Counted from the stretch's first letter, positions 31,423-46,078 are shown. The stretch: 64,000 nucleotides of DNA from Coriobacteriia bacterium (GCA_038245725.1 JBBRSD010000006.1:41036-105035), one strand, 5' to 3'. The notes: generated by a model not told the origin, from the letters alone. Numbers and translations: made by a program.

Positions 31423-34400
31423 TCAGCCGCCGAGCATCGTGATGCGCACCGTGTGTTGCCGGCCGTCGTCGTCGAGCGCCACGCCGATTCCTTCGACGAG
31501 CAAGCCGTCGAGTTCGATGCGCGCCACGCCGCGGTTCACGCCTCGTGGGTTCTCCACCCGGATGCTATAGGTCGTCTCATCCCCGTGCCGGTACACCGCG
31601 TCGAAGCCGGCCCAGCGCTTGGGGATGCACGGATCGATCACCAGCAGCGTGCGCTCCTTCTCGGCGAGGAGGCGAATGCCGAGAAGAGAGCCCAGCGCCA
31701 CGCGGTAGAACCAGCTCGCAGCGCCGGTGTACCACGTCCACCCACCGCGTCCGGTGTGGGGTGGCGCGGCGTAGACGTCGGCGGCGACGACATAGGGTTC
31801 GACGACGTAGCGATCGGCGGCCTCGCGCGTCATCGAGTGGCTGATAGGGTTGATGAGATCGAGGAGCGAGTGCGCCTCGTCGCCGTCGCCACGCGTGAGG
31901 TAGGCGAGGATGACCCAGAGCGCTCCGTGCGTGTACTGGCCGCCGTTCTCGCGGACGCCGGGAACGTAGCCCTTGATGTAGCCGGGGTCGCGCGTGGTCT
32001 TGTCGAACGGCGGCGTGAGCAGCGCGATCAGGCCGTCTTCTCGGCGGACGAGCTTCTCGTCGACGCTGTCCAGAGCGATGGCGGCGCGGTCCGGGTCGCC
32101 GAGGCCGCTGATCGTCGCCCATGCCTGTGCGATCGCGTCGATACGGCACTCATCGGCGTCATGGGTGCCAAGTGGCGTGCCGTCGTCGAAGTATGCGCGG
32201 CGGTACCAGGAGCCGTCCCACGACTCCTCGGCAGCGGCGGCGAGGCGCTTGGCCCACACGCGGTAGTCCGAGGCGAGACCCGTGTCGCCGCGGCCTTCGA
32301 CGATGGGCGTGAACCGATCGAGCACGTAGCCGAGGAACCATGCGAGCCACACGCTCTCGCCGCGACCTTCGTGACCGACACGGTTCATGCCGTCGTTCCA
32401 GTCACCGCCACCGATAAGCGGCAGCCCGTGTGCGCCCGTCGGCCGGCCGGTCTCGATGGCAGCGAGGCAGTGCTCGTAGATGGTCGCGGCGCGCTCCGAG
32501 ACGGCTGGCTGCACGTAGGCGTCTTCGGCCTCGAGGGGTAGCGGCGGGCCTTCGATGTAGGCGACGTGCTCGTCAAGCACGCTCGCATCGCCGGTCGCGG
32601 CGAGGTACTCGGCGACGACGAGCGGCAGCCAGTGGCGATCGTCGGTGATGTGCGTGCGCACGCCTCGGCCGGAGTACGGCTGCCACCAGTGCAGCACGTC
32701 GCCCTCGGCGAACTGGTGATGGCTCGCCTCGACGATCTGCGCGCGCACGAGGTCTGGCCGCGCGATGAGCAGCGCCATGACGTCTTGCAGCTGGTCGCGG
32801 AAGCCGAACGCGCCGCTGCTCTGATACGTCGCGGAGCGCCCCCACAACCGGCACGCGGTGGCCTGGTAGAGCAGCTGGCCGTTGACCATGAGGTCGAGCT
32901 TCGGGTCGGGCGTGGTCACCTGAACCTTGCCGAGAAGATCGCGCCAGAATCCGGTGACGCTCGCGAGCGCGGCTTCGGCTGCTTCCGGTTCGCGGTAGCG
33001 AGCCACGAGCTCGCGCGCCTGCTCGAGCGTGGCCGTCTGGCCGAGGAAGAAGCTGATCTCCTCGGTGGCCCCGGGCGCGATCTCGAGCACGCACTGCATC
33101 GCGCCGCACGTGTCGTGGTAGCGACCGGACACTTCGCCGAGGTTCTTTCGGCGCATTGCGGCCGGGTCGCACGGCCGCCCGTTGCGGCCGACGAACTCGC
33201 TGCGGCTCGCGGTCCAGCTCGCGAGCGGGCGGTCGGTCGCGAGGAAACCGCAGCGTCCGGGGAAGTCGAGGTTGAAGTGGTTGTGGGCGGTGAGGATGTC
33301 GCTCTCGGCGTCGAACCAGGTCACCGCAAGCTGCTGAGCTCGAGAGCGAGAGTCGCCGAGCACCCACTCGACGAACTGCGTGACCGAAAGCGTGCGCGGC
33401 TCGTCACCGAGGTTGGTGAGCACGAGGCGGCAGACGCGAACGGGCTCGTCCTCGGCGACGAACCAGTCGAGCGTATGGCCGATCCCGTGCGTGTCGTGCT
33501 CGAAGCGCACGCGGCCCCGGCCGTGGCGAATAACGTACGGTTCCGCGGTTCGGACGGGAAGTGGAGTCGGGCTCCAGAACTCGCCGGTCGCCTCGTCTCG
33601 GATGAAGAAGGCCTCGCCGCTGCCGTCGCTGACGGGGTCGTTGTTCCAGGTGGTGATGCGGTTCTCGTGGCTGTTGAGCGCCCACGTGCAGCCCACGCCA
33701 GCTTCGCTCACCATGCAGCCGAACGTCGACGAGGCCAGCACGTCGATCCACGGCGCGGGCGTGGTCATCTCGTGATCGAGCACGATGACGTAGTCGCCGG
33801 TATCGAGGTCGAAGCCGCCGTAGCCGTTATCGAACGCGAGCGCGGGACGCGTGAACGGCCGCGTCGCAGGAGCTTGCGAAGAAGGCAAGGCGCTCGGGAC
33901 GAAGGCCTCAGGCAGCGAGAACGATCTCCCTCGGCGGTTGAGCTGCAACTCGATCGAGCCGAAGTCGCCATCGAGCGTGGCCCGTGCCACCGAGCTCAGC
34001 AGGTTGAGCACGTCGGGATGCATCTGGTCGATGCGCCGCAGGAAGACGCCGCCAGGTTTGTCGAGGAGCTGGAGCGCGTGCCCCGTACGCACGAGCAGCC
34101 GCAGACGGTCGTCGAGCTCGTCGGAGTAGCCGGTGGGCCGCGCATTCAGGATGACGAGGTCGGCGATGAGCCCCTTGTGACGCCAGTACTGGTGTGCGAG
34201 CAGAGCTTGCCGGACGAGCGGTGCGTGCTCGAGCTCCTCGACGCGAACGAGCAGGATCGGGAGATCGCCAGAGATGCCGATCGACCACAGCCCCGACATC
34301 TGCAGGCCGTTTTCAACGGTCGTCTTGGTCTTGAGCGGCGAGTGCGGGTCGGTCAGCAGCAGCCGCGACGCGAGCCGCTCGAGGATGACCGCTTCCTGCG

Positions 34401-37400
34401 GACTGATGCCGAGGTCGCGGAGTTCGAGCTGGGAAGCGGTCCAGGCGAGGTCGATCGCGCGTTGCGCGCTACGGGTGTCGTGGTACTTCTCGGAGAGGCG
34501 CACGGCGGTGTCGCGCTCGGCGGTGACGCCTGTGGCCAGCACGAGCCGCACGCTTTCGCCCGCAGGCAGCTCGATGATGCGGCGCAGCGAGCAGCACGGG
34601 TCGAGCACCGGTCCGCGCGTGCACGACAGCTCGCCGCCGTGCTCGACGGCGGCTGGATCGTCGACACCGCGCAGTCGGCCGAGGAACGCGGCGCGGTCGG
34701 TCTCGTAGCTGACGCCGCAGACCGGCTCCTGCTCGCACGAGAGCAGGTGGAGTCCCCAGTAGCGCGGCTCGTCGGAACTGCGGGGGCGACGCGTGAACAG
34801 CACGGTGTTGGTCTCGGCCAGCCACTCGGTCTCGACGAAGAGATTTGAGAACGACTTGTGCGCCTGATCGGAGGATTGTTTCGTCAACGCGATCTCGAAG
34901 TACGACGTGACCTCGAGCCGACGTGGCTTGAGGCCGTGGTTCGAGAACGTGACGCGCCTGATCTCGACGTCGTCTTCGGGCGAAACCGAGACCTCGACGT
35001 GGGTCTCGAGGCCTCCGTCGCGGCGGTGGAACTCGGCCTTGTCGGGCGCGAAGATGACGCTGTAGCGGTCGGGCCGCTTTGGGTACGGGTTGAACGGCGC
35101 CGAGAAGACCTCGTCGGTTTCGGTGTCGCGCACGTAGATGAACGTGCCCCAGCAGTCGCGCGTGACGTCCTCGCGGTAGCGGTTGACCGCGAGCCCGTTC
35201 CAGCGCGAGTACCCGCCACCACCGTTGGTGATCATCACCGAGTAGCGGCCGTTGGACAGGAAGTGGGTGGCGGGCACCGGCGTGTCGGCGGTGTTGTACG
35301 AGCGCGTGACCGGAGGCGGAAGCTCGCTCACCGAGCGCAAGTGCTTGACCTCCTCGGCATGTGGGGTGACGAGCTGTATGTGGCGCGGGACGCGCTCCTG
35401 CAGCAACAGCTCGGCCGAGCACACGATCGGGTCCTCGTGGAAGCGGTCGCGCATGCGGCCGTCGGTGAGCGCGTTGCCCAGCGCGACGAACGACATCCCC
35501 TGGTGATGCGCGAAGTAGCTCGCGACGACAGCGCGCCTCTGCCCTGCCGGCACGCGCCCGGCCGTGTAGTCGAGCGCCTCGTAGTAGCCGAAGCGGCCCT
35601 CCGCGCCTTCCGCCGAGAAGACCGTGAGGTCCGCGATGACTGCGTGCGCATCGACCGGCAGCGCGATGATCGCCGCGTACGGGGCGACCACGACGTCGTC
35701 GGACAGCCCGCGCTTGAGGCCGAGTCCGGGCACGCCGAACGCCTGGTACTGGTACGTGAGGTCCGCGTCTTTCGCGTTGAACGCCGATTCGCTCACGCCC
35801 CACGGCACGCCGCGCGCCGCACCGTAACTGATCTGCGCGCGCACCACGGTGCGGTACGTCTCCGAGAGGATCGTCTCGGGCCAGTCGTTCATCACGAGTA
35901 GCGGCATCAGGTACTCGAACATCGACGCGCTCCAGCTGACGAGCGCACGGCCGTCGTGCATGCGCGTCAGTGCCCGGCCCAGCCGGAACCAATGCTCCTG
36001 CCCGATGTCTCCCTTGGCGATCGCAAGGAAGCTCGCGAGGCGGCACTCGCTGGCGAGCAGGTCGTAGTAGCTGGGGTCGAGGCGACCCTCGTTGAGGTTG
36101 TAGCCGATGGAGAAGAGCTGACGGTGCGGGTCGAACAGCATCGAGAAGTCGGTGTGCTCCCACATCTCGCGAGCAATCAATGCGTCGAGTCGCAGCCGAG
36201 CGAGTTGCTCGATAGCGGCAGGTCGCACGCTGCGGATGCCCGCGGCGAGCTCAGCCGCCCATGTGCCGACCGTCGATGGTTCTGTCGCCAGCTTGTCGAG
36301 CATGGCGAGCGCCTCGCCCAGACCCCCGGCGATTCCGACGAGACTCGGCACTCGGTCGAGCAGCGGCAACAGCGCGTCTTGCGAGCGCACCTCGGCGGGG
36401 GCGTCGGCGATGAGATGTGCCCACGGCGTTAAATCGGCAAGCAGTATCTCGGACTCACGAATCGCAGAGAGCGAGTCGGCGACTGAGCACGCGAGGCGCT
36501 CCGTTGCGCTCGCGGGTATGCACGGCACGCCTTCAGCCGCAGGTATCGGGCAGGTGACGGCCGGTGTGTCGGCGAGCGCGGTCTCGACCTGGTCGGCGAG
36601 CGCGGAAAGCCTGCCCAGCAAGACGACCCAGGCGCCGAGATCGCAGGGCTGCTCGGCGACGTCGAGTGCGCGAAGAAGCGAGTCGAGCGCCTCGCGCAGG
36701 TCGCGTGTTTCGTGCGCGGCGGGCAGCGCGCTCTGCTCGGCGACGAGGTCTTCGAGCGCGAGGCGAACGGCGTCGCGCGCGCCGAGGATAAGCTGCGGAC
36801 CCACGAGTGAGGACTCGGACGCCTCGAGCAGCGCGATCCGCACGACGAGCAGGTGGCCGGCGAGGTTGCCTGAGTCGACGGTCGAGACGTAAGCGGGCCG
36901 CAGAGGCGCGAGGGTCTCGATGTTGTACCAGTTGTAGAAGTGACCGCGGAAGCGCTCGAGTCCCGCCATCGCGTTCAGCGTCGCCGAGACGCGCGTGGTC
37001 AGTCCGCGGACATTGATGTAGCCGAGATCGAACGCGTTGACGTAGGAGAGGAGCTGGAGGCCGATGTTCGTTGGCGATGTGCGCCACGCGACGACTCCGC
37101 CGGGATCCTCCTGGTAGTTGTCGGGCGCAAGGTGGTGGCCGTAGGCGGTCACGAAGGTCTCGAAGAACCGCCACGTCTTGCGCGCAACGCGGCGCAGGGA
37201 GTCTCTGTCGGCGGCGTCGAGGGGCTCTTGCGCGAGCACGGTCGCCGGTTGCGAGAGCCACCACGCGAACACCGGCCCGGCGAGCCATGATGCCGCCAGC
37301 GGAACCGCGACCGCGAGACGGACGAGCATGAGCAGCCAGGCCTTCTCGGTGGTCAGGCCGTCGAGGAAGGTGCCGAAGGTGCTCGCGACGAGCACCGCCA

Positions 37401-40266
37401 CCGCGACTGAGGCGTGAAGGCCCATCGCTCGCCAGAACGCCATCGGCGTGCGGCCCGCGCGCGCCTCGGCATCGGCGGCCGTCTCCCACTCGAGCAGATG
37501 CCTGTGCGAGACGGTCATGCGATACAGGGCTCGGGCGATCGCGTCGATCATGAGCCACGCCTGGTACGGCAGTGTCGATAGCGAAAGCGCACCGCGCACC
37601 GTGTCGGTCGCGAAGTCGCGGAGCACCGAGGGCGCGGTCGCCGCGAAGCTCACCGAGCGCGGGCGGAACAGCATCGAGTCGGCGAGCGAGAAGTACGCCG
37701 GGAAGAGCACCACCGCGATCATGAGGAGCGGCCACGAAACGGTCGCCTCGGGCACGAGCCACCAGCCGAGAAGGAACAGCACGAGCGTGGTCGGGGCTAC
37801 GAGCGAACGGCGCAGGTTGTCGACGATCTTCCAGCGATGTAGGCGCGAGAGCGGGTTTGGTGCCGGCACCCCATGCGCGTTGCTGACGCGCAAGCCGAGC
37901 CACGGCAACGTCTGCCAGTCACCGCGCACCCAGCGGTGAAGCCGAGATGACGCCGCGAGGTAGTTTGCGGGATAGTCGTCGAGCACCTCGACGTCGCTTG
38001 CCAGCGCAGTCCGCAGAAACGATCCCTCGATGAGGTCGTGGCTGAGCATCGAGTCCTCTTTGAAGCGCCCCTCGAGTACGCCTTCGAACACGTCGAGCTC
38101 GAAGATGCCCTTGCCGGTGAACGAGCCTTCGCCGAAGACGTCCTGATACGTGTCGGACACCGCGCCGGCATACGGATCGATGCCGGTCGATCCCGAGTAC
38201 AGTCTCGCGAAGCGGCTGCGCCCGGCCCCGGCGAGCGTCATCCCCACACGTGGCTGCACGAGACCGTAACCCTCGACGACGCGTGGCGTCCCCGGCTGCC
38301 AGCGCGCTCGGTTGAGCGGATGAGCGATCGTCGAGACGAGCTTGCGGCCACCGTCTCGGGGGAGGACCGTGTCGGCGTCGAGCGTAAGAACGAACGTGCA
38401 TGAGCGACGAAAAGCGGAGTCGCCCAGCTTGGTGGAGAACGTCGTGTCGGGGCGGCCTCGCATCTCGCGCGCGAGTTCGAGCAGCGCGCCGCGCTTGCGC
38501 TCCCAGCCCATCCAGAGGCCCTCGGACTCGTTAAGCCGTCGCGAACGCACGAGAAGGTGGAACGGTCGCACGCCATGCTCGGCCTCGTAGCGCTCGTTGA
38601 GCTCGGAGATGCCGCGCACCGCCGCCTCGAGCATCACGCCGTCATCAGAGCGCGTGGGATCGGGCGACGACTTCAAGTCGCCCAGTAGTGCGAAGGCCAG
38701 GTTCGGGTCGCGGTTCCCCAGGTAGGTGATCTCGAGGTGCTCGATGATCTCGCGTGTTGAAGCCACCGACGAGAAGAGGGCAGGGACAACGGCGAGCGTG
38801 CGATTCGACTCGTCGATGGGGAGGCGGAAGTCGAGCTTGGGAAGTCGCCTGGGCGGGAAGGCGACCGAGCCCAACCGGTTGACGACCACCAGCGCGAGCT
38901 CGCTGAGCGGCACCACTGCGGCCAAGGCAAGTACAGCTATCCGGTACGGACCCGCACCTTCGTTGTGGGCGTACAGAGACAGTCCCGCCAGGAGCAGCGC
39001 TGTCATTCCAGTGAGGGTGCCCCAATAGAACACGCCGTGGTGGCGGACGATCCGGTTGCGGTAGAAGCGCTCGCGTGGCCGCGGGCGATAACCGATGATC
39101 TTCTCCAGCTGGTAACGGCCTGGCTCGACGAGCCACCAGCCCACGTGTCCGCGCAGGTCATCGGTCGCATCGGCGGCGAGGGCCTCGCCCGCAAGCGCAA
39201 CGACCTTCTGCGCGACCTGGGCTTCCGAGTGGTGCGAGCGCCGGGCGATCTCCTCGAGCGCGTGGCGGTACCGGTCGCGGCTGTCGAAGTCCATGGCGCC
39301 GTACGTGCGGGCGGGATCTTCGCGCAATGCGGCCTCGACGTAGGAGACGGACTCGAAGAACTCGTGCCAGTCGAGTGCGTCGAGTAGCCGGATACTAGTG
39401 ATCGAGTTCGCGATGGAAACTTGGTTGGCGGCCTGCTCCTGCTGGGCCGCTGCGGCCGCCGTCTCCAGGACGATGCCGTCGGCGGACAGCCGGTGCTCGA
39501 GCCAAGCGTTGATCGTTTCGCCGCCCTGTTCGAGCTGGCCGAGCCGCTGCGAAAGCCTCACGAAGAACGTCGGTGAGACACCACGCGAGCCTGCGTCCAG
39601 CTCGCTCAGAAGGGCGGGCAGTTCGCCGGGCTCGCCTTGTGACGCGAGCACGAGCCGCTGAGCCCACGAATCAGCCGAGAACTCCGCGCGTTGCGAAACG
39701 ACCACCGCGCGCGACAGGCGCCGCAGGTTCTCCACGAGCCCGATACGCAGCATGATCGGGACGGCCCAGACCTCGCCGATCGTGAGCGGCTCGACGCGCT
39801 GGTAACCCTCGATGAAGGAGGCGAGGTACTCCTCGTCCAACCGTGAGTCCGTGTGCGCGATCAGAGCGAGGAGCGCCTCGTACACTCGCGGGAAGTCTCG
39901 GAAGGCGCCGTCGGTCAGGCGCGGAAGCTCGAGGCCGTAGTGCGAAGGGAGATCGGTGCGCACGAGCTGCACCTGCTCCTCGATCAGGTAGTAGTTGTCG
40001 AGGAGCCACTCGCCGGCAGGCGCCGCTGCGCCCCGCTCGCGCGTGCCGGCCGAAAGCTCGCTGCTATCGGCGGCGAGCGACGTGGCGGCCTTGTCGGCGA
40101 GCGCGGTGAGTGGGGAGACGCGTAGGTGGCCGCCGGTTGTGGACTTCTGCGCCGCGGACAGCGTCCGAGCCTCTACGGCCAGCCGCTCCGCCGAGAGGAT
40201 CTCAGCGCGCAGGGGCACGTCGCCCGGAGGGACTCTCGGCAGGGTTGAGCGGGTCGGGTCGGGCAT
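31423..40266 (-). CDS. Cyclic beta-1,2-glucan synthase (Cgs/NdvB/ChvB-like; GT84 + glucoamylase-like cyclase + GH94 phosphorylase)
   Basis: 2947 aa; WLLDNY, WMGWERKRG, TLDADT, SHDLIEG, RLHRWVRGDWQ, YDLLASE, WGVSES, QSSGAFGFRDQLQD, GDWNDGMN, ENGGQYTH, GGWTWYTGAA. Confidence 0.93.
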   Translation of the reverse strand: MPDPTRSTLPRVPPGDVPLRAEILSAERLAVEARTLSAAQKSTTGGHLRVSPLTALADKAATSLAADSSELSAGTRERGAAAPAGEWLLDNYYLIEEQVQLVRTDLPSHYGLELPRLTDGAFRDFPRVYEALLALIAHTDSRLDEEYLASFIEGYQRVEPLTIGEVWAVPIMLRIGLVENLRRLSRAVVVSQRAEFSADSWAQRLVLASQGEPGELPALLSELDAGSRGVSPTFFVRLSQRLGQLEQGGETINAWLEHRLSADGIVLETAAAAAQQEQAANQVSIANSITSIRLLDALDWHEFFESVSYVEAALREDPARTYGAMDFDSRDRYRHALEEIARRSHHSEAQVAQKVVALAGEALAADATDDLRGHVGWWLVEPGRYQLEKIIGYRPRPRERFYRNRIVRHHGVFYWGTLTGMTALLLAGLSLYAHNEGAGPYRIAVLALAAVVPLSELALVVVNRLGSVAFPPRRLPKLDFRLPIDESNRTLAVVPALFSSVASTREIIEHLEITYLGNRDPNLAFALLGDLKSSPDPTRSDDGVMLEAAVRGISELNERYEAEHGVRPFHLLVRSRRLNESEGLWMGWERKRGALLELAREMRGRPDTTFSTKLGDSAFRRSCTFVLTLDADTVLPRDGGRKLVSTIAHPLNRARWQPGTPRVVEGYGLVQPRVGMTLAGAGRSRFARLYSGSTGIDPYAGAVSDTYQDVFGEGSFTGKGIFELDVFEGVLEGRFKEDSMLSHDLIEGSFLRTALASDVEVLDDYPANYLAASSRLHRWVRGDWQTLPWLGLRVSNAHGVPAPNPLSRLHRWKIVDNLRRSLVAPTTLVLFLLGWWLVPEATVSWPLLMIAVVLFPAYFSLADSMLFRPRSVSFAATAPSVLRDFATDTVRGALSLSTLPYQAWLMIDAIARALYRMTVSHRHLLEWETAADAEARAGRTPMAFWRAMGLHASVAVAVLVASTFGTFLDGLTTEKAWLLMLVRLAVAVPLAASWLAGPVFAWWLSQPATVLAQEPLDAADRDSLRRVARKTWRFFETFVTAYGHHLAPDNYQEDPGGVVAWRTSPTNIGLQLLSYVNAFDLGYINVRGLTTRVSATLNAMAGLERFRGHFYNWYNIETLAPLRPAYVSTVDSGNLAGHLLVVRIALLEASESSLVGPQLILGARDAVRLALEDLVAEQSALPAAHETRDLREALDSLLRALDVAEQPCDLGAWVVLLGRLSALADQVETALADTPAVTCPIPAAEGVPCIPASATERLACSVADSLSAIRESEILLADLTPWAHLIADAPAEVRSQDALLPLLDRVPSLVGIAGGLGEALAMLDKLATEPSTVGTWAAELAAGIRSVRPAAIEQLARLRLDALIAREMWEHTDFSMLFDPHRQLFSIGYNLNEGRLDPSYYDLLASECRLASFLAIAKGDIGQEHWFRLGRALTRMHDGRALVSWSASMFEYLMPLLVMNDWPETILSETYRTVVRAQISYGAARGVPWGVSESAFNAKDADLTYQYQAFGVPGLGLKRGLSDDVVVAPYAAIIALPVDAHAVIADLTVFSAEGAEGRFGYYEALDYTAGRVPAGQRRAVVASYFAHHQGMSFVALGNALTDGRMRDRFHEDPIVCSAELLLQERVPRHIQLVTPHAEEVKHLRSVSELPPPVTRSYNTADTPVPATHFLSNGRYSVMITNGGGGYSRWNGLAVNRYREDVTRDCWGTFIYVRDTETDEVFSAPFNPYPKRPDRYSVIFAPDKAEFHRRDGGLETHVEVSVSPEDDVEIRRVTFSNHGLKPRRLEVTSYFEIALTKQSSDQAHKSFSNLFVETEWLAETNTVLFTRRPRSSDEPRYWGLHLLSCEQEPVCGVSYETDRAAFLGRLRGVDDPAAVEHGGELSCTRGPVLDPCCSLRRIIELPAGESVRLVLATGVTAERDTAVRLSEKYHDTRSAQRAIDLAWTASQLELRDLGISPQEAVILERLASRLLLTDPHSPLKTKTTVENGLQMSGLWSIGISGDLPILLVRVEELEHAPLVRQALLAHQYWRHKGLIADLVILNARPTGYSDELDDRLRLLVRTGHALQLLDKPGGVFLRRIDQMHPDVLNLLSSVARATLDGDFGSIELQLNRRGRSFSLPEAFVPSALPSSQAPATRPFTRPALAFDNGYGGFDLDTGDYVIVLDHEMTTPAPWIDVLASSTFGCMVSEAGVGCTWALNSHENRITTWNNDPVSDGSGEAFFIRDEATGEFWSPTPLPVRTAEPYVIRHGRGRVRFEHDTHGIGHTLDWFVAEDEPVRVCRLVLTNLGDEPRTLSVTQFVEWVLGDSRSRAQQLAVTWFDAESDILTAHNHFNLDFPGRCGFLATDRPLASWTASRSEFVGRNGRPCDPAAMRRKNLGEVSGRYHDTCGAMQCVLEIAPGATEEISFFLGQTATLEQARELVARYREPEAAEAALASVTGFWRDLLGKVQVTTPDPKLDLMVNGQLLYQATACRLWGRSATYQSSGAFGFRDQLQDVMALLIARPDLVRAQIVEASHHQFAEGDVLHWWQPYSGRGVRTHITDDRHWLPLVVAEYLAATGDASVLDEHVAYIEGPPLPLEAEDAYVQPAVSERAATIYEHCLAAIETGRPTGAHGLPLIGGGDWNDGMNRVGHEGRGESVWLAWFLGYVLDRFTPIVEGRGDTGLASDYRVWAKRLAAAAEESWDGSWYRRAYFDDGTPLGTHDADECRIDAIAQAWATISGLGDPDRAAIALDSVDEKLVRREDGLIALLTPPFDKTTRDPGYIKGYVPGVRENGGQYTHGALWVILAYLTRGDGDEAHSLLDLINPISHSMTREAADRYVVEPYVVAADVYAAPPHTGRGGWTWYTGAASWFYRVALGSLLGIRLLAEKERTLLVIDPCIPKRWAGFDAVYRHGDETTYSIRVENPRGVNRGVARIELDGLLVEGIGVALDDDGRQHTVRITMLGG

Positions 40267-40382
40267 GGACGATCCCCCAAGGGGCGAAGGCGCGGTTCGG
40301 CCGGTGGTTTGCTGTGCAAGAGGTGGTGCAGATGTAGATTATCCCCGAGTGCGACGTTACCAGCCGGCCAGTTGCGGTGGTC

Positions 40383-40398
40383 ATACCCCGAGGGGTAT
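40383..40398. promoter_or_regulatory. CsoR/CstR-family operator-like palindrome
   Basis: ATACCCC-GA-GGGGTAT perfect inverted repeat about 35 bp upstream of the rhodanese-thioredoxin start. Confidence 0.65.
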
Positions 40399-40432
40399 AG
40401 TTCGGGGAGCAAAACGTCGTGAGGAGTCGCGC

Positions 40433-41131
40433 GTGAAGAAGGCAACAATCTGGATCGTCGTGGCCGTAGCGGTCGTTACCATGGCGCTTCTGGCGTTCAG
40501 GCCCGCCGCCGGCGGCGTGAAGACCGTCGACGCCGCGGGACTCATCGCGGCCCAATCGAAGGGTGCACAACTCATCGACGTGCGCTCGAAGGGCGAGTAC
40601 GACCTCGGGCATATCGCCGGAGCGGTCAACGTGCCGCTCGATACTCTCCAGGTGGCGGCTGCGAACTGGGATCGCAACGCGACCTATGTCGTCTACTGCG
40701 CCTCAGGCGTCCGCTCATCCCAGGCTGTGCAGATTATGACCTCGATGGGGTTCAAGAACATCGACCACTTCGCGAAGGGCGTAAACGAGGGCTGGACTGC
40801 CCCGCTTGAGTCCTCTGATGGCTCGTCTGGCTCGAGCACCGTCCAGACGTCGGGCAAGCCCGTGCTGATCGAGTTCTACACCGATTCTTGACCCTCGTGC
40901 CAGAAGATGAAGCCTCTGGTCGAGGGGCTCGAGAAGTCGTACGCCGGCAAGGTTGAGTTCAGGCGGTTGAACATTGAGAGCGATCAGGCGGCGGTCAAAC
41001 TCGCCGACACGATGGGAGTGCAATACGTTCCGACGTTCGTGTTCGTGAACTCCAACGGTGTCGTGGCAAAGAACGTGGTTGGCGAGATGACCCAGGATGC
41101 GCTTTCGTCGGGAGTGAGTTCGCTCAAGTAG
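40433..41131 (+). CDS. Membrane-anchored rhodanese-thioredoxin fusion, predicted selenoprotein (Sec at UGA 40889-40891, UxxC)
   Basis: GTG start with GAGGAG RBS; N-terminal TM; rhodanese LIDVRS..EY..GHIAGAVNVP..VVYCASGVRS; Ser/Gly linker; Trx fold GKPVLIEFYTDS-TGA-PSCQKMKP...GVQYVPTFVF continuing in the same frame to TAG 41131 (232 aa). Confidence 0.85.
40911..40929 (+). promoter_or_regulatory. Putative bacterial SECIS hairpin
   Basis: AGCCTCT-GGTCG-AGGGGCT 7-bp stem with a G-initiated loop, 26 nt after the UGA. Confidence 0.65.
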
Positions 41132-41251
41132 CAATCAGCGCCATTCGCGCTCATCGCCGAATATCGCCCGAACGGCCTCTATGAGAGGCCGTTCGTCGTT
41201 CTCCACGGCAAAACCGGTGGCGCTGCGCGGCCATGAGCGTATATTCGATGT

Positions 41252-41590
41252 AGGGCGCTTTGCTCGGCGTCCACACCCGTCGGTCAGGAGGTCTCAACTG
41301 CAGGTGGAAACAGCAACAGAGCAGGAAGACCGGGCCGAAGTGGCAGATGAAGGTCTCAGGTACCGAGTGCCGAACGACTAGCACGATGCCGGAGAGCCGG
41401 GCATAAGCCCTTGGAACGCCGAGGATGAGACCGCAGGGACACAGCCGGTCGAGATTCCTCGCTACTAGCCCTTTAGAAGGGCCCCTTAGGCGGTGCGAAG
41501 GCCACCTCGGTCACAGGAGGACAACCCGGCGGAATGCGCGCCGGTCAGCAGAGGAGCGGATCCCGAATCGGGACCCGCTCCTTCTTATTG
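41252..41590 (+). ncRNA. Structured ~340-nt noncoding RNA, Ms1-like candidate
   Basis: -10 TATATT at 41240-41245, nested long-range stems, terminal GC hairpin 41552-41582 with T-rich tail, no credible ORF; motifs AAGACC..GCCGAAG and CTAGCACG recalled from Ms1. Confidence 0.6.
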
Positions 41591-41610
41591 GATGCTGTGG
41601 GCAGTGAAGG

Positions 41611-41949
41611 TCAGAGTGCCTCGGGCCCGGTCTCGCCGGTCCGGACGCGGATGACCTGCTCGACGGTGGAGACGAAGATCTTACCGTCACCGATGCGATC
41701 GGTCCGAGCAGCCTTCACGACCGCGTCGACGAGGTCGGCCACTTCGTGGTCGTTCACAACGGCGACGATTGAGACCTTGGGAAGCAGATCGATGACGTAC
41801 TCGGCGCCACGCCAGTGCTGTGAGATGCCGCCCTGGGTGCCGTGACCCTTGACCTCGGTGATCGTCAGGCCCTTGTGTCCGAGACCGACGACCGCTTCCT
41901 TTACAGAGTCGAGCCGTTCCGGGCGAACGACAGCTTCTACGCGCTTCAT
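41611..41949 (-). CDS. glnK: P-II nitrogen regulator
   Basis: EVKGHGTQGG...RGAEY..DLLPK, ARTDRIGDGKIFV; directly downstream of amtB. Confidence 0.95.
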   Translation of the reverse strand: MKRVEAVVRPERLDSVKEAVVGLGHKGLTITEVKGHGTQGGISQHWRGAEYVIDLLPKVSIVAVVNDHEVADLVDAVVKAARTDRIGDGKIFVSTVEQVIRVRTGETGPEAL

Positions 41950-43572
41950 CTATGCCTCACCTCCGGCGGTTGAATAGTCGGCTCCGTCAGTTGCGGGGCT
42001 CGTGTTCACGAAGTCGGGGTAGGCGAGCACACCCATCTCGGTGGCGTCCAAGCCTGCGATCTCGTCGTTGGCCGAGGAACGCAGGCCCATGATCTTCTTC
42101 TGCGCCGTGAAGAACAGGTAGAACATGCCGAATGCCCATGAGGCGACGACGACGCAGGCGATCAGCTGCGCGACAAGCTGGCCGGGGTCGCCATAGAACA
42201 GGCCCTTGACCGGATTGGCGATGCCATTGAATCCGGCGCCGTAGGTGCCATCCGCGAACAGACCGAGAGAGATCATGCCCCAGAGACCGCACACGCCGTG
42301 GACCGAGGAGGCGCCCACCGGGTCATCGACCTTGAGCTTGCGCTCGATAAAGATGACCGAAAGGACGACCAGGATACCGGCGACCGCGCCGATGAGAACC
42401 GCTGCCCAGGGGCTGACAAACGCGCAGGGAGCGGTGATGGCCACGAGGCCGGCGAGCGAGCCGTTGACCGCCATCGACGGATCGGGCTTGCCCCAGAGCT
42501 TCCACACGAAGAACATCGCCGAAACCATACCTGCGGAGCCAGCGAGGAGCGTGTTGGCGATGATGACGGAGAAGCGCAAGTCCCCGGCGGCCAGGGTCGA
42601 CATGCCGTTGAAGCCGAACCAGCCGAAGAACAGGATGATGGTGCCGGCGATGGCCATCGGGATGTGGTGGCCAGGGATGGCGATCGGGGTGCCGTCTTTC
42701 TTGAACTTACCGATGCGCGGGCCGATCACGACTGCGCCCGCAAGCGCCGAGAATCCACCGACCGCATGCACGACCGATGAGCCGGCGAAGTCGAGCACGC
42801 CGTGGCCGAGGTGCAGCGTGGTGCCCAGCTGCGAGAGCCAGCCGCCACCCCAGACCCACATGCCGTAGACCGGGTAGACGATGATGCCCATGAAGATGCC
42901 CATCGGGACGAACGCCGAGAACTTCCAACGCTCAGCCATGGCGCCGGTCACGATCGTGGCGGCGGTGTCCATGAATACGAGCTGGAAAAGGAAGAACGCG
43001 AAGATGCCGACGTCATATGTGCCGTCGTGCAGCGAGCCAAGCAGGAAGCCCTTGTAGCTGAAAAGGCCCCAACCGGGAGCTGCGGCGAACAGGTGGTTCA
43101 GCGGCTCGACTCCACCGAGCAGACTGATGCTTCCGAAGCCGCCAAACTGGATCGCGAACCCTGCGGCCCAGTAGGAGAGAGCGCCGATCCCAAAGACGAT
43201 GAAGTTTGTCATGGCGACGTGTGCCGCGTTCTTCGAGCGACAGAAGCCGGTCTCGACGAGCATGAAGCCCGCCTGCATGAAGAAGATGAGCGCCACACCG
43301 ACGATCACGAAGAACATGTTGACGCCGATGGTCAGATGTCCCAGCTGAGCGCCGATCTCAGCGACAGTGGGCTGGCCCGCGGTCGCGGCGGTAACCGCAT
43401 TGATGTCACCCGTGGCGGCGCCGTTGGGGTCACCTGCAAGGGCGAGGCCGGTCAGAAGCACGAAGGCAACTATGGTGAACAATGACGTACGAACTGCAGC
43501 ACGCTTCAGAATGTCCGGCATTCGGTCGCGTACGGCTGAAGGGTCGAAGAACCGCATAAGAAGCGACTTCAA
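41950..43572 (-). CDS. amtB: Ammonium transporter
   Basis: FFMQAGF..VETG..RSKN, GAMAER, DFAGSSVVH, FFGWFGFN, DDPVGASSVHG. TTG start 43572 with AAGGAGG RBS. Confidence 0.96.
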   Translation of the reverse strand: MKSLLMRFFDPSAVRDRMPDILKRAAVRTSLFTIVAFVLLTGLALAGDPNGAATGDINAVTAATAGQPTVAEIGAQLGHLTIGVNMFFVIVGVALIFFMQAGFMLVETGFCRSKNAAHVAMTNFIVFGIGALSYWAAGFAIQFGGFGSISLLGGVEPLNHLFAAAPGWGLFSYKGFLLGSLHDGTYDVGIFAFFLFQLVFMDTAATIVTGAMAERWKFSAFVPMGIFMGIIVYPVYGMWVWGGGWLSQLGTTLHLGHGVLDFAGSSVVHAVGGFSALAGAVVIGPRIGKFKKDGTPIAIPGHHIPMAIAGTIILFFGWFGFNGMSTLAAGDLRFSVIIANTLLAGSAGMVSAMFFVWKLWGKPDPSMAVNGSLAGLVAITAPCAFVSPWAAVLIGAVAGILVVLSVIFIERKLKVDDPVGASSVHGVCGLWGMISLGLFADGTYGAGFNGIANPVKGLFYGDPGQLVAQLIACVVVASWAFGMFYLFFTAQKKIMGLRSSANDEIAGLDATEMGVLAYPDFVNTSPATDGADYSTAGGEA

Positions 43573-43721
43573 CGCCCACACCTCCTTTTGGCAGTGGCGA
43601 CCCGCCCTATGCAGGTCGCGGCTGGGGGCACAAGCGCCGTACTCCGTTGGACGGCGGTACTCGGAGATGCGCAGCTCCGAGGCGACCGATGGCGGCCGTA
43701 CAGCAACCGTAGGGGTGCGAC

Positions 43722-43770
43722 ATTTCAAAGCTGTTTCTTGGCGAATGCGGCGCGGTGAAACTTGGGTTTC
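43722..43770 (-). promoter_or_regulatory. Putative actinobacterial GlnR-type boxes upstream of amtB-glnK
   Basis: Minus strand GAAAC-n6-TTCAC-n6-GCATT-n6-GAAAC-n6-GAAAT with exact 11-bp periodicity. Confidence 0.5.
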
Positions 43771-43871
43771 GGTGCCTGCCCGAAACGAAAGACGCTGGTG
43801 CGACGACCGCAACAGATGCGAAACACCGCGGGACTAAGCTTCGCGTACGCACTACGTACGGAGGCCTGCGA

Positions 43872-45092
43872 ATGCACACTGAAACCTCGCGAGTACTCAT
43901 AGACCTGCTCATCGTGTTCGCGGTCGGCAAACTCATGGGCGAGTTGTTCGAGCGGATGCGCCAACCAGCTGTCATCGGTGAGCTTCTCGCCGGCATCCTG
44001 ATCGGTCCGGGGCTTCTCGGCTGGGTGAGGCCTGGGGCGGTGCTGTCGACCGTGGCGACGATGGGCGTGATCGTGCTCATGTTCGTCGTCGGGCTCGAGA
44101 CACGTCCGAGCGATCTCTTCAAGGTAGGCGGCCGCGCCTTCGTCGTGGGCAGCGTCGGAATCGTGCTGCCGCTGCTGTGCGGCTTCTGGTTCGGGACGGC
44201 GCTGGGCGACGGCCGGCCGGAGGCGTTGTTCATCGGGACGGCGCTGGTGGCGACGTCGGTGGGAATCACGGCGCGCGTGCTGGCGGACCGCGGGTTTCTC
44301 TCGGCGACGGAGGCTCGCATCATTTTGGCGGCGGCGGCCATCGACGACGTGCTGGGGATGCTCGTGCTGTCGTTGGTGGTGGGTTCGACGCACGGCAGCA
44401 TTGACGTCGCGCACATGGGCGTGTTGCTGGCGCAGGTAATCGCGTTCATCGGGTTCGAGATGTGGCTCGCACCGAAACTGGTGGCCCGACACGCGCACTG
44501 GCTCGACAAGCTTCGCATCCCGAACGCCGGGTTCGTGGTCGCGCTCATCGTGATGCTGGGCATGGCAGCGCTCTCCGAGGCGATTGGGCTCGCGGGAATC
44601 GTGGGCGCCTTCTTCGCGGGCATGATGTTCGCCGAGACCGAGGACCGCTGGGAACTCACCAAGCAGGCGCGGCCGCTCTACGAGTGGCTCGTGCCGTATT
44701 TCTTCGTCGTTACCGGCATGCAGGTGCAGCCGTCGCTCTTCGCTCACAGCAAGGTGCTTGTACCGGGCCTGGTGCTGGTTGCGATCGCCGTGGCGACGAA
44801 GGTCGTTGGGTGCGGGCTCGGGGCCGCGGGCATGGGCTGGCGGCGCATGATCGCCATCGGCGTGGGCATGGTGCCGCGCGGCGAGGTCGGGCTCATCGTG
44901 GCTTCGACCGGGCTCGCGATGGGTGTGATCGGCTCGGCGAGCTACGCGATGATCATCCTCGTGGTGGTCGCGTCGACGGTCGTGGCACCTCCACTGCTGG
45001 CCGTGTTGTTCCCGTGGGCGTTGGCGCAGCCGGTGGATGCTCACGGCGAGGGCCTTGCCGAGACGGGCGTGCTAGCTTTCGGCGACGAGTAG
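43872..45092 (+). CDS. Cation:proton antiporter (CPA2, NapA-like)
   Basis: QPAVIGELLAGILIGP, ATSVGIT, AAAIDDVLG, GMVPRGEV; ATG 43872 with GGAGG RBS. Confidence 0.92.
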   Translation: MHTETSRVLIDLLIVFAVGKLMGELFERMRQPAVIGELLAGILIGPGLLGWVRPGAVLSTVATMGVIVLMFVVGLETRPSDLFKVGGRAFVVGSVGIVLPLLCGFWFGTALGDGRPEALFIGTALVATSVGITARVLADRGFLSATEARIILAAAAIDDVLGMLVLSLVVGSTHGSIDVAHMGVLLAQVIAFIGFEMWLAPKLVARHAHWLDKLRIPNAGFVVALIVMLGMAALSEAIGLAGIVGAFFAGMMFAETEDRWELTKQARPLYEWLVPYFFVVTGMQVQPSLFAHSKVLVPGLVLVAIAVATKVVGCGLGAAGMGWRRMIAIGVGMVPRGEVGLIVASTGLAMGVIGSASYAMIILVVVASTVVAPPLLAVLFPWALAQPVDAHGEGLAETGVLAFGDE

Positions 45093-45195
45093 TCGGCCGA
45101 AACTCGGCCCGAGATAAGTGAAGCGACAAGTGACAAGTCAAGTCCTACGTAGAGAAGTACATCCTGAGCGCGCGATGATATACTCTCCCGCGCAC

Positions 45196-45271
45196 GGGGA
45201 CGTAGCTCAGCTGGGAGAGCATCGGCTTTGCAAGCCGAGGGTCGAGGGTTCGAGCCCCTTCGTCTCCACCA
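45196..45271 (+). tRNA. tRNA-Ala (TGC)
   Basis: GGGGACG...CGTCTCC acceptor stem with G3:U70, TTTGCAA anticodon loop, GTTCGAG T loop, CCA; -10 TATACT at 45179. Confidence 0.98.
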
Positions 45272-45276
45272 AGCGA

Positions 45277-45318
45277 AAACGCAGGTCGGGAGCTTATAGG
45301 CTCTCGACCTGTTTGTTT
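45277..45318. terminator. Bidirectional terminator between tRNA-Ala and the lmo0937-like gene
   Basis: CAGGTCGGGAGC/GCTCTCGACCTG stem flanked by AAAAC and TTTGTTT. Confidence 0.7.
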
Positions 45319-45349
45319 CTTCTACCAAGCGCCGTCGACAGTGGTGCGT

Positions 45350-45493
45350 CTAGGCGCGTCGACCGACGACCAGGTTGTAGATGAGTACGATGATCGCGAT
45401 CACGATCAGCAGGTGGATAAGACTGCCGCCAAGGTGAAAGCTGAAGCCGAGAAGCCAGAGAACAAGAAGAATCACGAATATCGTCCACAACAT
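45350..45493 (-). CDS. Small membrane protein, lmo0937 (DUF5670) family
   Basis: MLWTIFVILLVLWLLGFSFHLGGSLIHLLIVIAIIVLIYNLVVGRRA; GGAGG RBS. Confidence 0.88.
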   Translation of the reverse strand: MLWTIFVILLVLWLLGFSFHLGGSLIHLLIVIAIIVLIYNLVVGRRA

Positions 45494-45543
45494 GGTGACT
45501 ACCTCCGATTGGCCGACGAATGAACCTTCGTACACTGTCATTC

Positions 45544-45568
45544 ATGCCCAAGCGTTTGGCCGCGAAAC
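45544..45568 (-). promoter_or_regulatory. Putative SigB/SigF-type stress promoter
   Basis: GTTT-N15-GGGCAT upstream of the lmo0937-like gene. Confidence 0.5.
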
Positions 45569-45638
45569 GGAAGTCCGGAACGTACGGCCCGACCCGCGAT
45601 TGACCGGTGTAATGCTGCACCCTGCGTGCCTGGAATCG

Positions 45639-45679
45639 AAAAAGGGACCGCGAGCAGGTTTCTCCGCTCGCGGTCCCTT
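45639..45679 (-). terminator. Intrinsic terminator after the lipoprotein gene
   Basis: AAGGGACCGCGAGC/GCTCGCGGTCCCTT stem ending in a T tract on the minus strand. Confidence 0.72.
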
Positions 45680-45712
45680 GTCTGTGCTGCAGCCGCTACG
45701 CGGCCACGGCAG

Positions 45713-46078
45713 TTACTTCTGCGACTTGGCGACCATCTTGCCGTTGAAGAACGAGACGGTCAGACCGCTGCTCCACGCGTAGGTGACGAACGCGAACTTC
45801 TTGCTGCCCTTGCGCACGACAACGGTGCCGGGTCCTCCGGCCATCGCGCTTACCTGCTGGTAGCTCATGCCGGTCCTGACCCGGTTGTACAGCGCAAGCG
45901 GGCCGGCGTCCTTGGGAGCTGCGGTTGCGGTTGGGTTAGCCGACGAAGTCGTAGTACTTGTGGCCACGGGCGCTGCCGCGGGGATGCTTCCGACCGGGCC
46001 GTTGTTGGCGGGCGAACAGCCGACGAGAGAGAGCGCCACCAAGCACACGACGATTGCAGGAACGATCAGTTTCTTCAA
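45713..46078 (-). CDS. Lipoprotein with BLIP/DUF3862-like domain
   Basis: Lipobox LVGC, Thr/Ala linker, YNRVRTGMSYQQV...GGPG...YAW...VSFFNGKMVAKSQ. Confidence 0.75.
   Translation of the reverse strand: MKKLIVPAIVVCLVALSLVGCSPANNGPVGSIPAAAPVATSTTTSSANPTATAAPKDAGPLALYNRVRTGMSYQQVSAMAGGPGTVVVRKGSKKFAFVTYAWSSGLTVSFFNGKMVAKSQK

Follow-up and report, generated by a model that had tools for sequence, protein, structure and literature searches.

Within a 64,000-nucleotide (nt) stretch of DNA from a Coriobacteriia bacterium (GCA_038245725.1, JBBRSD010000006.1:41036-105035; the window), a gene at 40433-41131 that databases cut at an internal UGA codon very likely encodes a single selenoprotein, in which a rhodanese domain is followed by a thioredoxin domain with a UxxC active site (U, selenocysteine), and which may well act outside the cell on reactive sulfur. 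Translation gives one frame of 232 codons plus a TAG stop, with its sole internal TGA at 40889-40891. As an initial annotation of this DNA had described, two open reading frames (ORFs) called in the region, 39995-40891 and 40907-41131, share this frame and are split by that single TGA. The codon falls, again as described, at the first Cys position of a thioredoxin active site (U153-P-S-C156, in the context IEFYTDS-U-PSCQKMKP). The parts of the gene are as follows.

40433..41131, + strand: whole gene, 232 amino acids (aa), with signal/anchor helix, rhodanese, linker and UxxC thioredoxin (frame, Pfam, structural model)
40421..40426, + strand: ribosome-binding site GAGGAG, 6 nt ahead of the GTG start (sequence)
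40439..40498, + strand: N-terminal hydrophobic helix, residues 3-22, signal anchor or signal peptide (model helix 3-21; ortholog hydrophobicity)
40550..40789, + strand: rhodanese domain, residues 40-119 (PF00581); catalytic Cys89 codon at 40697-40699
40835..41116, + strand: thioredoxin domain, residues 135-228 (PF00085); U153-P-S-C156, cis-Pro position P200
40889..40891, + strand: in-frame TGA, almost certainly read as selenocysteine U153 (66/66 ortholog loci; Cys in two orthologs)
40911..40929, + strand: selenocysteine insertion sequence (SECIS) hairpin, 7-base-pair (bp) stem, loop GGUCG at 40918-40922 (covariation)

We consider it nearly certain that the UGA is read through as selenocysteine (Sec). 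All 66 distinct ortholog loci that were extracted (30 from a first set and 36 more, with four duplicates dropped) carry TGA at the U153 codon, and never TAA or TAG. Contigs of sequencing run X1, which may be the source sample, have no alternative letter at the TGA, and a sequencing error for TGC or TGT, the concern raised at the outset, does not fit a TGA found at 66/66 loci. The expected 7-bp hairpin with a G-initiated loop is also present. Its arms, AGCCUCU and AGGGGCU, enclose GGUCG at 40911-40929, the loop begins 26 nt past the UGA, and the same stem is conserved and covarying in the orthologs. Across these, 97.1% of cells are paired and there are 49 two-sided changes at two pairs, counts that come from related rather than independent orthologs and from changes partly tied to L/V and E/D substitutions; the stem score was reached by 0 of 500 shuffles, and slid controls pair 23-50%. 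RNAalifold recovered this stem unprompted (consensus energy -11.24 kcal/mol). According to the legend of Fig. 2 of PMC13188914, a bacterial SECIS (bSECIS) has a loop of 3-9 nt, a stem of 4-16 bp, a distance of 16-37 nt from the UGA, a G within the first two loop positions and a minimum free energy of -7.5 or lower; the hairpin described here, with a 5-nt loop starting GG, a 7-bp stem and 26-nt spacing, lies within the constraints quoted there. Its GGUCG loop resembles the GGUCU loop that follows the fdh UGA in the same genome. A longer hairpin right after the UGA (-29.1 kcal/mol for 72 nt folded alone) was considered as the SECIS and rejected, its pairs being unconserved (15-66 of the 66 orthologs per pair).

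The genome, which is 98.5% complete, does not lack the Sec machinery, an absence that would have counted against read-through: selA, selB, selD and tRNA-Sec all score above cut-offs and cluster on contig C1, and selD carries a TGA of its own. Nor do the homologs have other residues at this position or lack the fusion; orthologs retain the TGA or, rarely, Cys, in addition to the fusion. Cys aligns with U153 in orthologs P0003 and P0132, as well as in the fusion proteins of Bacteroidota discussed below. In our domain trees, P0003 and P0132 have long branches and fall at two different points within the Sec clade; this suggests that, if the root lies outside, Sec gave way to Cys on two separate occasions. 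One genome (G064, 99% complete) is without selA, selB, selD, the fusion, ccdA and the DUF1462-type selenoprotein family described below, and contains no TGA-bearing member of the three families searched; this is a single genome. Two others, G010 and G145, were considered as further cases of co-loss and set aside, since they keep other TGA genes, so that only G064 counts.

Pfam scores the rhodanese (PF00581) at 62.4 bits against a cut-off of 22.2 and the thioredoxin (PF00085) at 59.3 bits against 23.5. As first noted from the sequence, the rhodanese has an intact CASGVR loop (C89-A-S-G-V-R-S) behind an N-terminal helix. The loop follows the pattern C-x-[TSVI]-G-x-R in 66/66 orthologs, and Y88, C89, G92, R94 and S95 in the rhodanese and C156 and P200 in the thioredoxin are unchanged in all of them, while a Trp precedes the Sec in only 29/66. 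The canonical TrxA model (TIGR01068) is not reached (56.7 bits, cut-off 96.8), and none of the 25 listed of 27 matching NCBIfam models is above its cut-off. An AlphaFold2 model built from the 66-ortholog alignment has an N-terminal helix and two domains joined by a less certain linker, with a mean predicted local distance difference test score of 93.1 and a predicted template modelling score (pTM) of 0.61. The best Foldseek matches are thioredoxins that cover approximately one-third of the query; among the matches listed, none spans both domains. A database protein, P0002, begins at the same GTG as the window gene.

Judging from the NCBI names of close relatives, the host likely belongs to the order Anaerosomatales (OPB41, Coriobacteriia). 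In a profile search of 301 genomes of the class that are at least 90% complete (99 of the order, 202 outside it), the full-length fusion was found in 78/99 order genomes (79 rows), each time with the internal TGA, and no fusion was found at E ≤ 1e-30 in the 202 class genomes outside the order. A 401-genome sample of the phylum gave five matches, all inside the order, and a separate related-locus search gave one full-length relative. selA was found in 127 of 146 order genomes. The initial annotation had anticipated that standard annotation would call the protein truncated. This is what databases contain: 119 of the 120 relatives listed have the rhodanese Pfam domain alone, without the thioredoxin half, and four that were inspected stop one residue before the UGA. 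The gene adds an order-wide selenoprotein that has been truncated by annotation almost everywhere.

We are confident that the protein is exported. The extracytoplasmic location proposed earlier is supported by a hydrophobic N-terminus in 65/66 orthologs and by the replacement of the helix in 6/66 with a lipobox-type signal (by a strict regular expression). Seven orthologs have a Cys within the first 45 residues, and the Cys ortholog P0132 also bears a lipobox-type signal. Positive charge is greater before than after the helix in 54/66, and a second transmembrane segment is present in none of the 66. Read by the lipobox and positive-inside rules, these N-terminal sequences indicate that both domains most likely face outward.

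It is also quite likely that the gene is controlled by a repressor of the CsoR family. The sequence ahead of the start codon holds three predicted elements.

40372..40377, + strand: predicted -35 hexamer TTGCGG (TTG at the same spacing in 55/61 ortholog promoters)
40383..40398, no strand: palindrome ATACCCCGAGGGGTAT (ATACCC-N4-GGGTAT), predicted operator of a CsoR-family (CstR-type) repressor
40396..40401, + strand: predicted -10 hexamer TATAGT, overlapping the right arm of the operator (consensus TATAAT over 61 ortholog promoters)

The palindrome sits between the predicted -35 and -10; a generic sigma-70 scan made no promoter call at 40372-40377. Over the 66 fusion loci, ATACCC-N4-GGGTAT is exact in 53 and has one mismatch in 6 (59/66 within one). 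Genome-wide, 7 sites are exact and 11 lie within one mismatch; the reversed control gives 0 and 1, respectively. A spacer of 4 is strongly preferred. All 21 relatives searched hold 2-9 exact sites, with none for the reversed control. A perfect palindrome with two mismatches at C9:27810-27825, which lies on the ribosome-binding site and start codon in a copper operon, was rejected as an operator and treated as incidental.

The presumptive repressor is the only CsoR/RcnR-family (PF02583) gene in the genome, and the family is present in 95/99 order genomes.

G000:C7:152753-153052, - strand: CsoR-family repressor, L055 (PF02583)

All 29 aligned orthologs (from 30 loci) keep both Cys and have Ser/Ala in place of the copper His and Asp/Glu in place of Tyr. 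The accessible part of 10.1101/2021.07.25.453692 describes an x-C-x-C signature (two Cys, no His at the Y position, no second-shell Tyr) that marks three persulfide-sensor clusters of the family, and this combination is seen in 29/29. The same source gives a Streptococcus mitis cst operator with half-sites identical to ours and a spacer of 5 rather than 4. Binding of the repressor to the palindrome is predicted from these likenesses. In a search of the PDB with the repressor, several CsoR-family proteins ranked about equally. A third Cys, close to the C terminus, is retained in nearly all repressor orthologs (L096-L125).

If the operator is functional, which genes share it? The site precedes a cytosolic WCGPC trx gene that adjoins the repressor in 23 of the 24 loci holding trx (6 of 30 loci did not reach trx, and the single miss is without upstream DNA), and it precedes ccdA in 22 of the 30 loci that match best. 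trxB is present in the genome, and ccdA lies directly downstream of the fusion in G098. The usual place of ccdA, between a copZ-like gene and a sensor kinase (G000:C7:159988-160436), is vacant here; six relatives have an operator-bearing ccdA between these two genes. The site also heads an operon encoding a small ferredoxin and a DUF1462-type selenoprotein (C-x-S-G-G-U) in 30/30 loci. This second hidden selenoprotein is found in 96/99 order genomes, always with TGA and with a near-invariant hairpin; it has no NCBIfam match and a weak match to ArsD (E 0.013) that is below the cut-off. A third hidden family (C-S-U), absent from this genome and without a Pfam or NCBIfam match, has the operator in 4/8 close loci and a hairpin with a GGUCU loop 25 nt on. 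Features outside the window that belong to this set are listed here.

G000:C6:152584-153003, + strand: UxxC paralog with the thioredoxin domain only, L020/L135 (own N-terminal helix, same SECIS)
G000:C1:313288-313629, - strand: hidden DUF1462-type selenoprotein, L129:1789-2130 (TGA, operator, hairpin)
L159:1089-1466, - strand: third hidden selenoprotein family (C-S-U), also L315-L321 and L340 (TGA in 8/8 close loci)
G000:C3:1318-2574, + strand: SQR-like flavoprotein, L130 (one-mismatch operator 75 nt upstream)

Other targets among 68 loci with sites include a methyltransferase, nadE, an FAD/CCG (FAD/Fe-S) oxidoreductase, an SBF/ACR3-like transporter, and DUF302, OsmC, YgaP-like and NifX-like proteins. 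In this genome sites precede the SQR-like flavoprotein, a DUF302 gene with OsmC, and a YgaP-like membrane protein. The repressor gene itself has the operator-bearing trx next to it; sulfur-type targets lie elsewhere, interspersed with others. Two candidates were dropped. SQR was rejected as an order-wide regulon member, being found in 1/99 genomes, and is possibly a recent recruit; an MCP-like gene (13 loci) was set aside because the site there more probably belongs to the ferredoxin-selenoprotein operon that runs divergently. Side products of our searches were five other candidate in-frame TGA codons with hairpins, at G000:C3:103374 (+), C15:15080 (-), C8:116258 (-), C16:3398 (-) and C1:371465 (-); three of them belong to a peroxiredoxin (TPGU), to a thioredoxin-like protein with UxxC and to fdh, and the other two are unexplained. 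The genome-wide screen for TGA plus hairpin was crude (22 of 116 candidates, mostly noise, with selD and the thioredoxin-only paralog missed), and the motif screen was noisy as well.

What might this protein do? We lean, by a modest margin over even, to an exported persulfide/polysulfide reductase that is fed by thioredoxin via CcdA and induced by reactive sulfur; that sulfane sulfur is the main substrate and signal seems to us slightly more probable. In this mechanism Cys89 would be loaded with sulfur from thiosulfate, polysulfide or a protein persulfide. The flexible linker, some 20 residues long, would then let the Sec153 selenolate attack the Cys89 persulfide, Cys156 would resolve the intermediate with release of HS-, and the Se-S bond would be re-reduced from NADPH through TrxB, cytosolic thioredoxin and CcdA. 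Reactive sulfur could also cross-link the two repressor Cys and so lift repression of the whole chain. Because this route yields no energy, it would serve protection or scavenging and not respiration. Precedents exist for its steps: sulfide is released from a rhodanese persulfide by a dithiol acceptor (accessible parts of PMC2593051 and PMC4618214), and for Pelobacter the available text of PMC3543383 proposes a route from thioredoxin to CcdA to a periplasmic thioredoxin to polysulfide. The NCBIfam model for TsoB, which combines a rhodanese with a DsbD/CcdA domain, matches both the fusion protein and CcdA, in each case below the cut-off. A sulfane-sulfur function had been proposed from the two domains; the CstR-type operator and its regulon give it independent support.

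Several observations weigh against this reading. Activity, expression and binding are all predicted, here from sequence, and the AlphaFold2 model, with its pTM of 0.61, does not fix the orientation of the two domains relative to each other. The operator is weak at 2/66 fusion loci and absent from 5/66. Because copper CsoRs bind similar operators, the operator alone names no signal. A copper regulon was nonetheless rejected: the repressor is without the copper His and 0/30 Cu-ATPase loci have a site within one mismatch, a control limited to some 1.5 kb on and around the ATPase core. The gene divergent from the repressor is presumably cation-efflux-like, and the gene just upstream of ccdA in relatives is one that we take to be copZ-like. 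The only ccdA in this genome is without an operator and lies in a copper-type cluster beside the thioredoxin-only UxxC paralog. That paralog, which sits after ccdA and before cupredoxin and Cu-ATPase genes and nests within the fusion clade, may be the real partner of ccdA. Two genomes, G120 and G083, have the fusion and no ccdA match. nadE, the FAD/Fe-S oxidoreductase, the SBF/ACR3-like transporter and the selenoprotein with the weak ArsD match are not obviously related to sulfur, and the SQR-like gene, in 1/99 order genomes, says little about the order. Our search turned up no exported thioredoxin-fold proteins with a redox motif besides the two exported Sec thioredoxins, although the genome has 18 multihaem ORFs. 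Just one of the two Anaerosomatales strains in culture is a sulfur reducer (PMC9686372), while the fusion is kept in 78/99 genomes. Four genomes (completeness 95-98%) also bear on read-through itself. In G012 and G040 the fusion carries its TGA although neither selA nor selB gave a match, yet both genomes keep a TGA selD, and their contigs stop 2-4 kb past selD, where selA sits in this genome; G010 and G145 have TGA genes without selA or selB matches, which incomplete assembly may explain.

The strongest rival, which we still judge improbable, is a general extracytoplasmic reductant replacing ResA, which would keep apocytochrome CXXCH motifs and other exported thiols reduced. CcdA would feed the Sec-thioredoxin, and the rhodanese would merely clear persulfides from exported thiols. 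Neither resA nor ccdA adjoins the resB/ccsA locus, the genome has 42 ORFs with CXXCH (18 with at least three motifs), and ccdA shares the operator in 22/30 loci. A hidden Markov model (HMM) search over the six-frame genome found only two exported redox-motif thioredoxins, both with Sec; as the HMM was built from thioredoxin domains, a divergent TlpA could escape it. Order-wide retention of the fusion would suit housekeeping, but 21/99 genomes are without a full-length match. The ResA model (NF002854) scores the protein at 33.6 against a cut-off of 170, the fusion lies away from ccs genes throughout the 40 extended loci, and the resB/ccsA region contains no operator site. Also against this rival, the Cys of the fused rhodanese is invariant.

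Weaker than a ResA-like role, and in our view rather remote, is a metalloid (arsenite, selenite, tellurite) or selenium-supply regulon, in which the rhodanese Cys would carry Se or As and the Sec-thioredoxin would reduce it outside the cell. The initial annotation had itself named selenium as a possible alternative to sulfane sulfur. Such a regulon would suit an operator that heads the DUF1462-type selenoprotein with the weak ArsD match (E 0.013) in 30/30 loci, the CxU selenoprotein in 4/8, and also the methyltransferase and the SBF/ACR3-like transporter; the third repressor Cys near the C terminus would be in keeping with it, and a known Sec enzyme reduces both polysulfide and selenite (accessible text of PMC13510729). 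Against it, the transporter scores 96 against a cut-off of 283 for ACR3, the methyltransferase has no NCBIfam match at 1e-12, and the ArsD match is below the cut-off. Moreover, no ars genes occur among the 40 extended fusion loci, and the x-C-x-C repressors for which the available part of 10.1101/2021.07.25.453692 gives data are persulfide sensors.

Similarly doubtful, and again weaker than the ResA-like role, is repair under oxygen or disulfide stress. Here the dithiol repressor would sense oxidation generally and the protein would rescue oxidized cysteines at the surface, its rhodanese Cys being sacrificed in the process. The best-conserved co-regulated genes (trx, ccdA, the ferredoxin with a thioredoxin-fold selenoprotein, OsmC and nadE) are of a general redox kind, and CstR dithiols react also with GSSG and H2O2. 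A CsoR-family regulator of Thermus loses DNA binding on disulfide formation and not with NaHS (accessible part of PMC10318464). However, the peroxiredoxin selenoprotein gene at C3:103374 has no nearby site within two mismatches, the sulfurtransferase loop is conserved, and the genome-specific SQR-like gene does bear a site. Persulfide reduction and these three alternatives all keep the same wiring, thioredoxin to CcdA to Sec-thioredoxin; they differ in substrate and signal.

That the TGA is a true stop, so that the rhodanese would be made by itself and the thioredoxin part would be a separate or dead fragment, is scarcely credible: the short form in databases, an ATG at 40907 that could open a 74-aa ORF and the TGA genes of G012, G040, G010 and G145 speak for it, yet the downstream ORF would start past Cys156, without the active site, the TGA is accompanied by a covarying SECIS, Cys orthologs exist, and the G012 and G040 contigs end as described above.

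Reading the gene as an exported Sec-dependent persulfide reductase, how does it compare with known systems? Sec-thioredoxins (PF00085, UxxC; Table 1 of PMC13188914) share the thioredoxin fold, the UxxC, the cis-Pro and a UGA with a bacterial SECIS, whereas here an export signal and a rhodanese with its active site intact precede the domain in the same chain. Rhodanese selenoproteins (forms 1-5, among them the rhodanese/DsbD fusion TsoB, NF045694) likewise have a rhodanese domain in a selenoprotein, but here the rhodanese keeps its Cys and the Sec is in the thioredoxin domain. TsoB (572 aa, UxxxxU motif) joins a rhodanese and a DsbD/CcdA-type domain in one chain, which the regulon described here would do in trans; the window protein scores 48.3 against 805 on NF045694 and 29.2 against a cut-off of 115 on NF041203, and the catalogued rhodanese Sec motifs UxxS, UxxG, CxU and UxxxxU are absent from it.

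The architecture is not unique, since sequence comparison reveals a Cys-only version that is common in Bacteroidota. These signal-rhodanese-thioredoxin proteins match the fusion in how their domains are ordered, in length (230-256 aa) and in having an export signal, with WCxxC instead of a Sec motif. They form 941 clusters at E ≤ 1e-30, named members are called thioredoxin domain-containing protein, and named carriers include Olivibacter, Pedobacter, Emticicia and Dyadobacter. Both domain trees set the Bacteroidota fusions apart from the clade of the order, and a common origin was not rejected (p-AU 0.09); with 23 of the 66 orthologs and few columns used, these trees leave the origin of the fusion unsettled. 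Our literature search found no study of the Bacteroidota proteins. Further variants were seen in passing: a lipoprotein in G089 (L284:2521-3366) with a rhodanese lacking the Cys and a thioredoxin with CxxC, and longer Cys-only rhodanese-thioredoxin forms with TCPAC (P0153, P0166, P0198).

The CstR regulons of Staphylococcus aureus, Enterococcus faecalis and streptococci, and Thermus TTHA1953, have in common with ours a CsoR-family x-C-x-C repressor and targets such as a rhodanese, an SQR-like protein, a thioredoxin and a methyltransferase, besides the S. mitis half-sites. Here, by comparison, the predicted targets are scattered over the genome, are partly selenoproteins, and include an exported enzyme together with ccdA and trx, and a Ser replaces Asn at the Y position; in Thermus, ccdA was found not to be regulated. 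Escherichia coli PspE is an exported single-domain rhodanese, and the window protein is below the PspE cut-offs; relative to PspE and the Pelobacter CcdA route, the rhodanese and its reductant are here in one chain with Sec, in a monoderm lineage.

A fusion of a rhodanese with a UxxC thioredoxin does not appear in Table 1 of PMC13188914 (119 selenoprotein families, 2026), and our literature search found no paper on such a fusion or on the regulon. BSepDB scanned Anaerosomatales genomes with known families (accessible text of PMC13326102), and may list the gene as a thioredoxin. With the fusion, a single small protein could be used to test how a persulfide passes from rhodanese to thioredoxin and what is gained by having Sec in place of Cys; the natural Cys orthologs and the large Bacteroidota Cys family can serve as controls. 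Through the shared operator, several orphan selenoproteins come together in a single regulon that is open to testing, for which a repressor, a site and a source of electrons can be named. The lineage in question is a subsurface one (likely Anaerosomatales), and strains of it are in culture.

A wider possibility, which we put forward only tentatively, is that the whole order has a Sec-armed sulfur-stress regulon in which one CstR-type repressor governs a complete electron line across the membrane (thioredoxin, CcdA, exported Sec-thioredoxin, rhodanese) and, in addition, two or more other selenoprotein families without an NCBIfam match. The fusion would then be a self-contained surface persulfide reductase, and the repressor may read selenopersulfides. 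If true, such a repressor would tie the transcription of selenoproteins to sulfur and selenium chemistry.

The remaining features around the gene are the following.

31423..40266, - strand: divergent neighbor, 2947-aa protein with GH94/glucoamylase domains (PF17167, PF06165, PF10091)
41170..41194, + strand: possible terminator, an 11-bp inverted repeat past the stop (sequence)
45196..45268, + strand: tRNA gene (Rfam)

An Rfam search of 38000-46000 gave nothing besides this one tRNA, and the inverted repeat at 41170-41194 was left uncalled by a terminator scan that demands a run of T. We take the divergent neighbor to be cyclic beta-1,2-glucan synthase-like. It is probably not a functional part of the system, and in the 40 extended loci we found no functional link to the fusion for either the GH94 gene or the glnB/amt-like genes. 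The GH94 gene adjoins the fusion in 37 of these loci, and the glnB/amt-like genes (41611-43812, - strand, in the window) lie downstream in 19.

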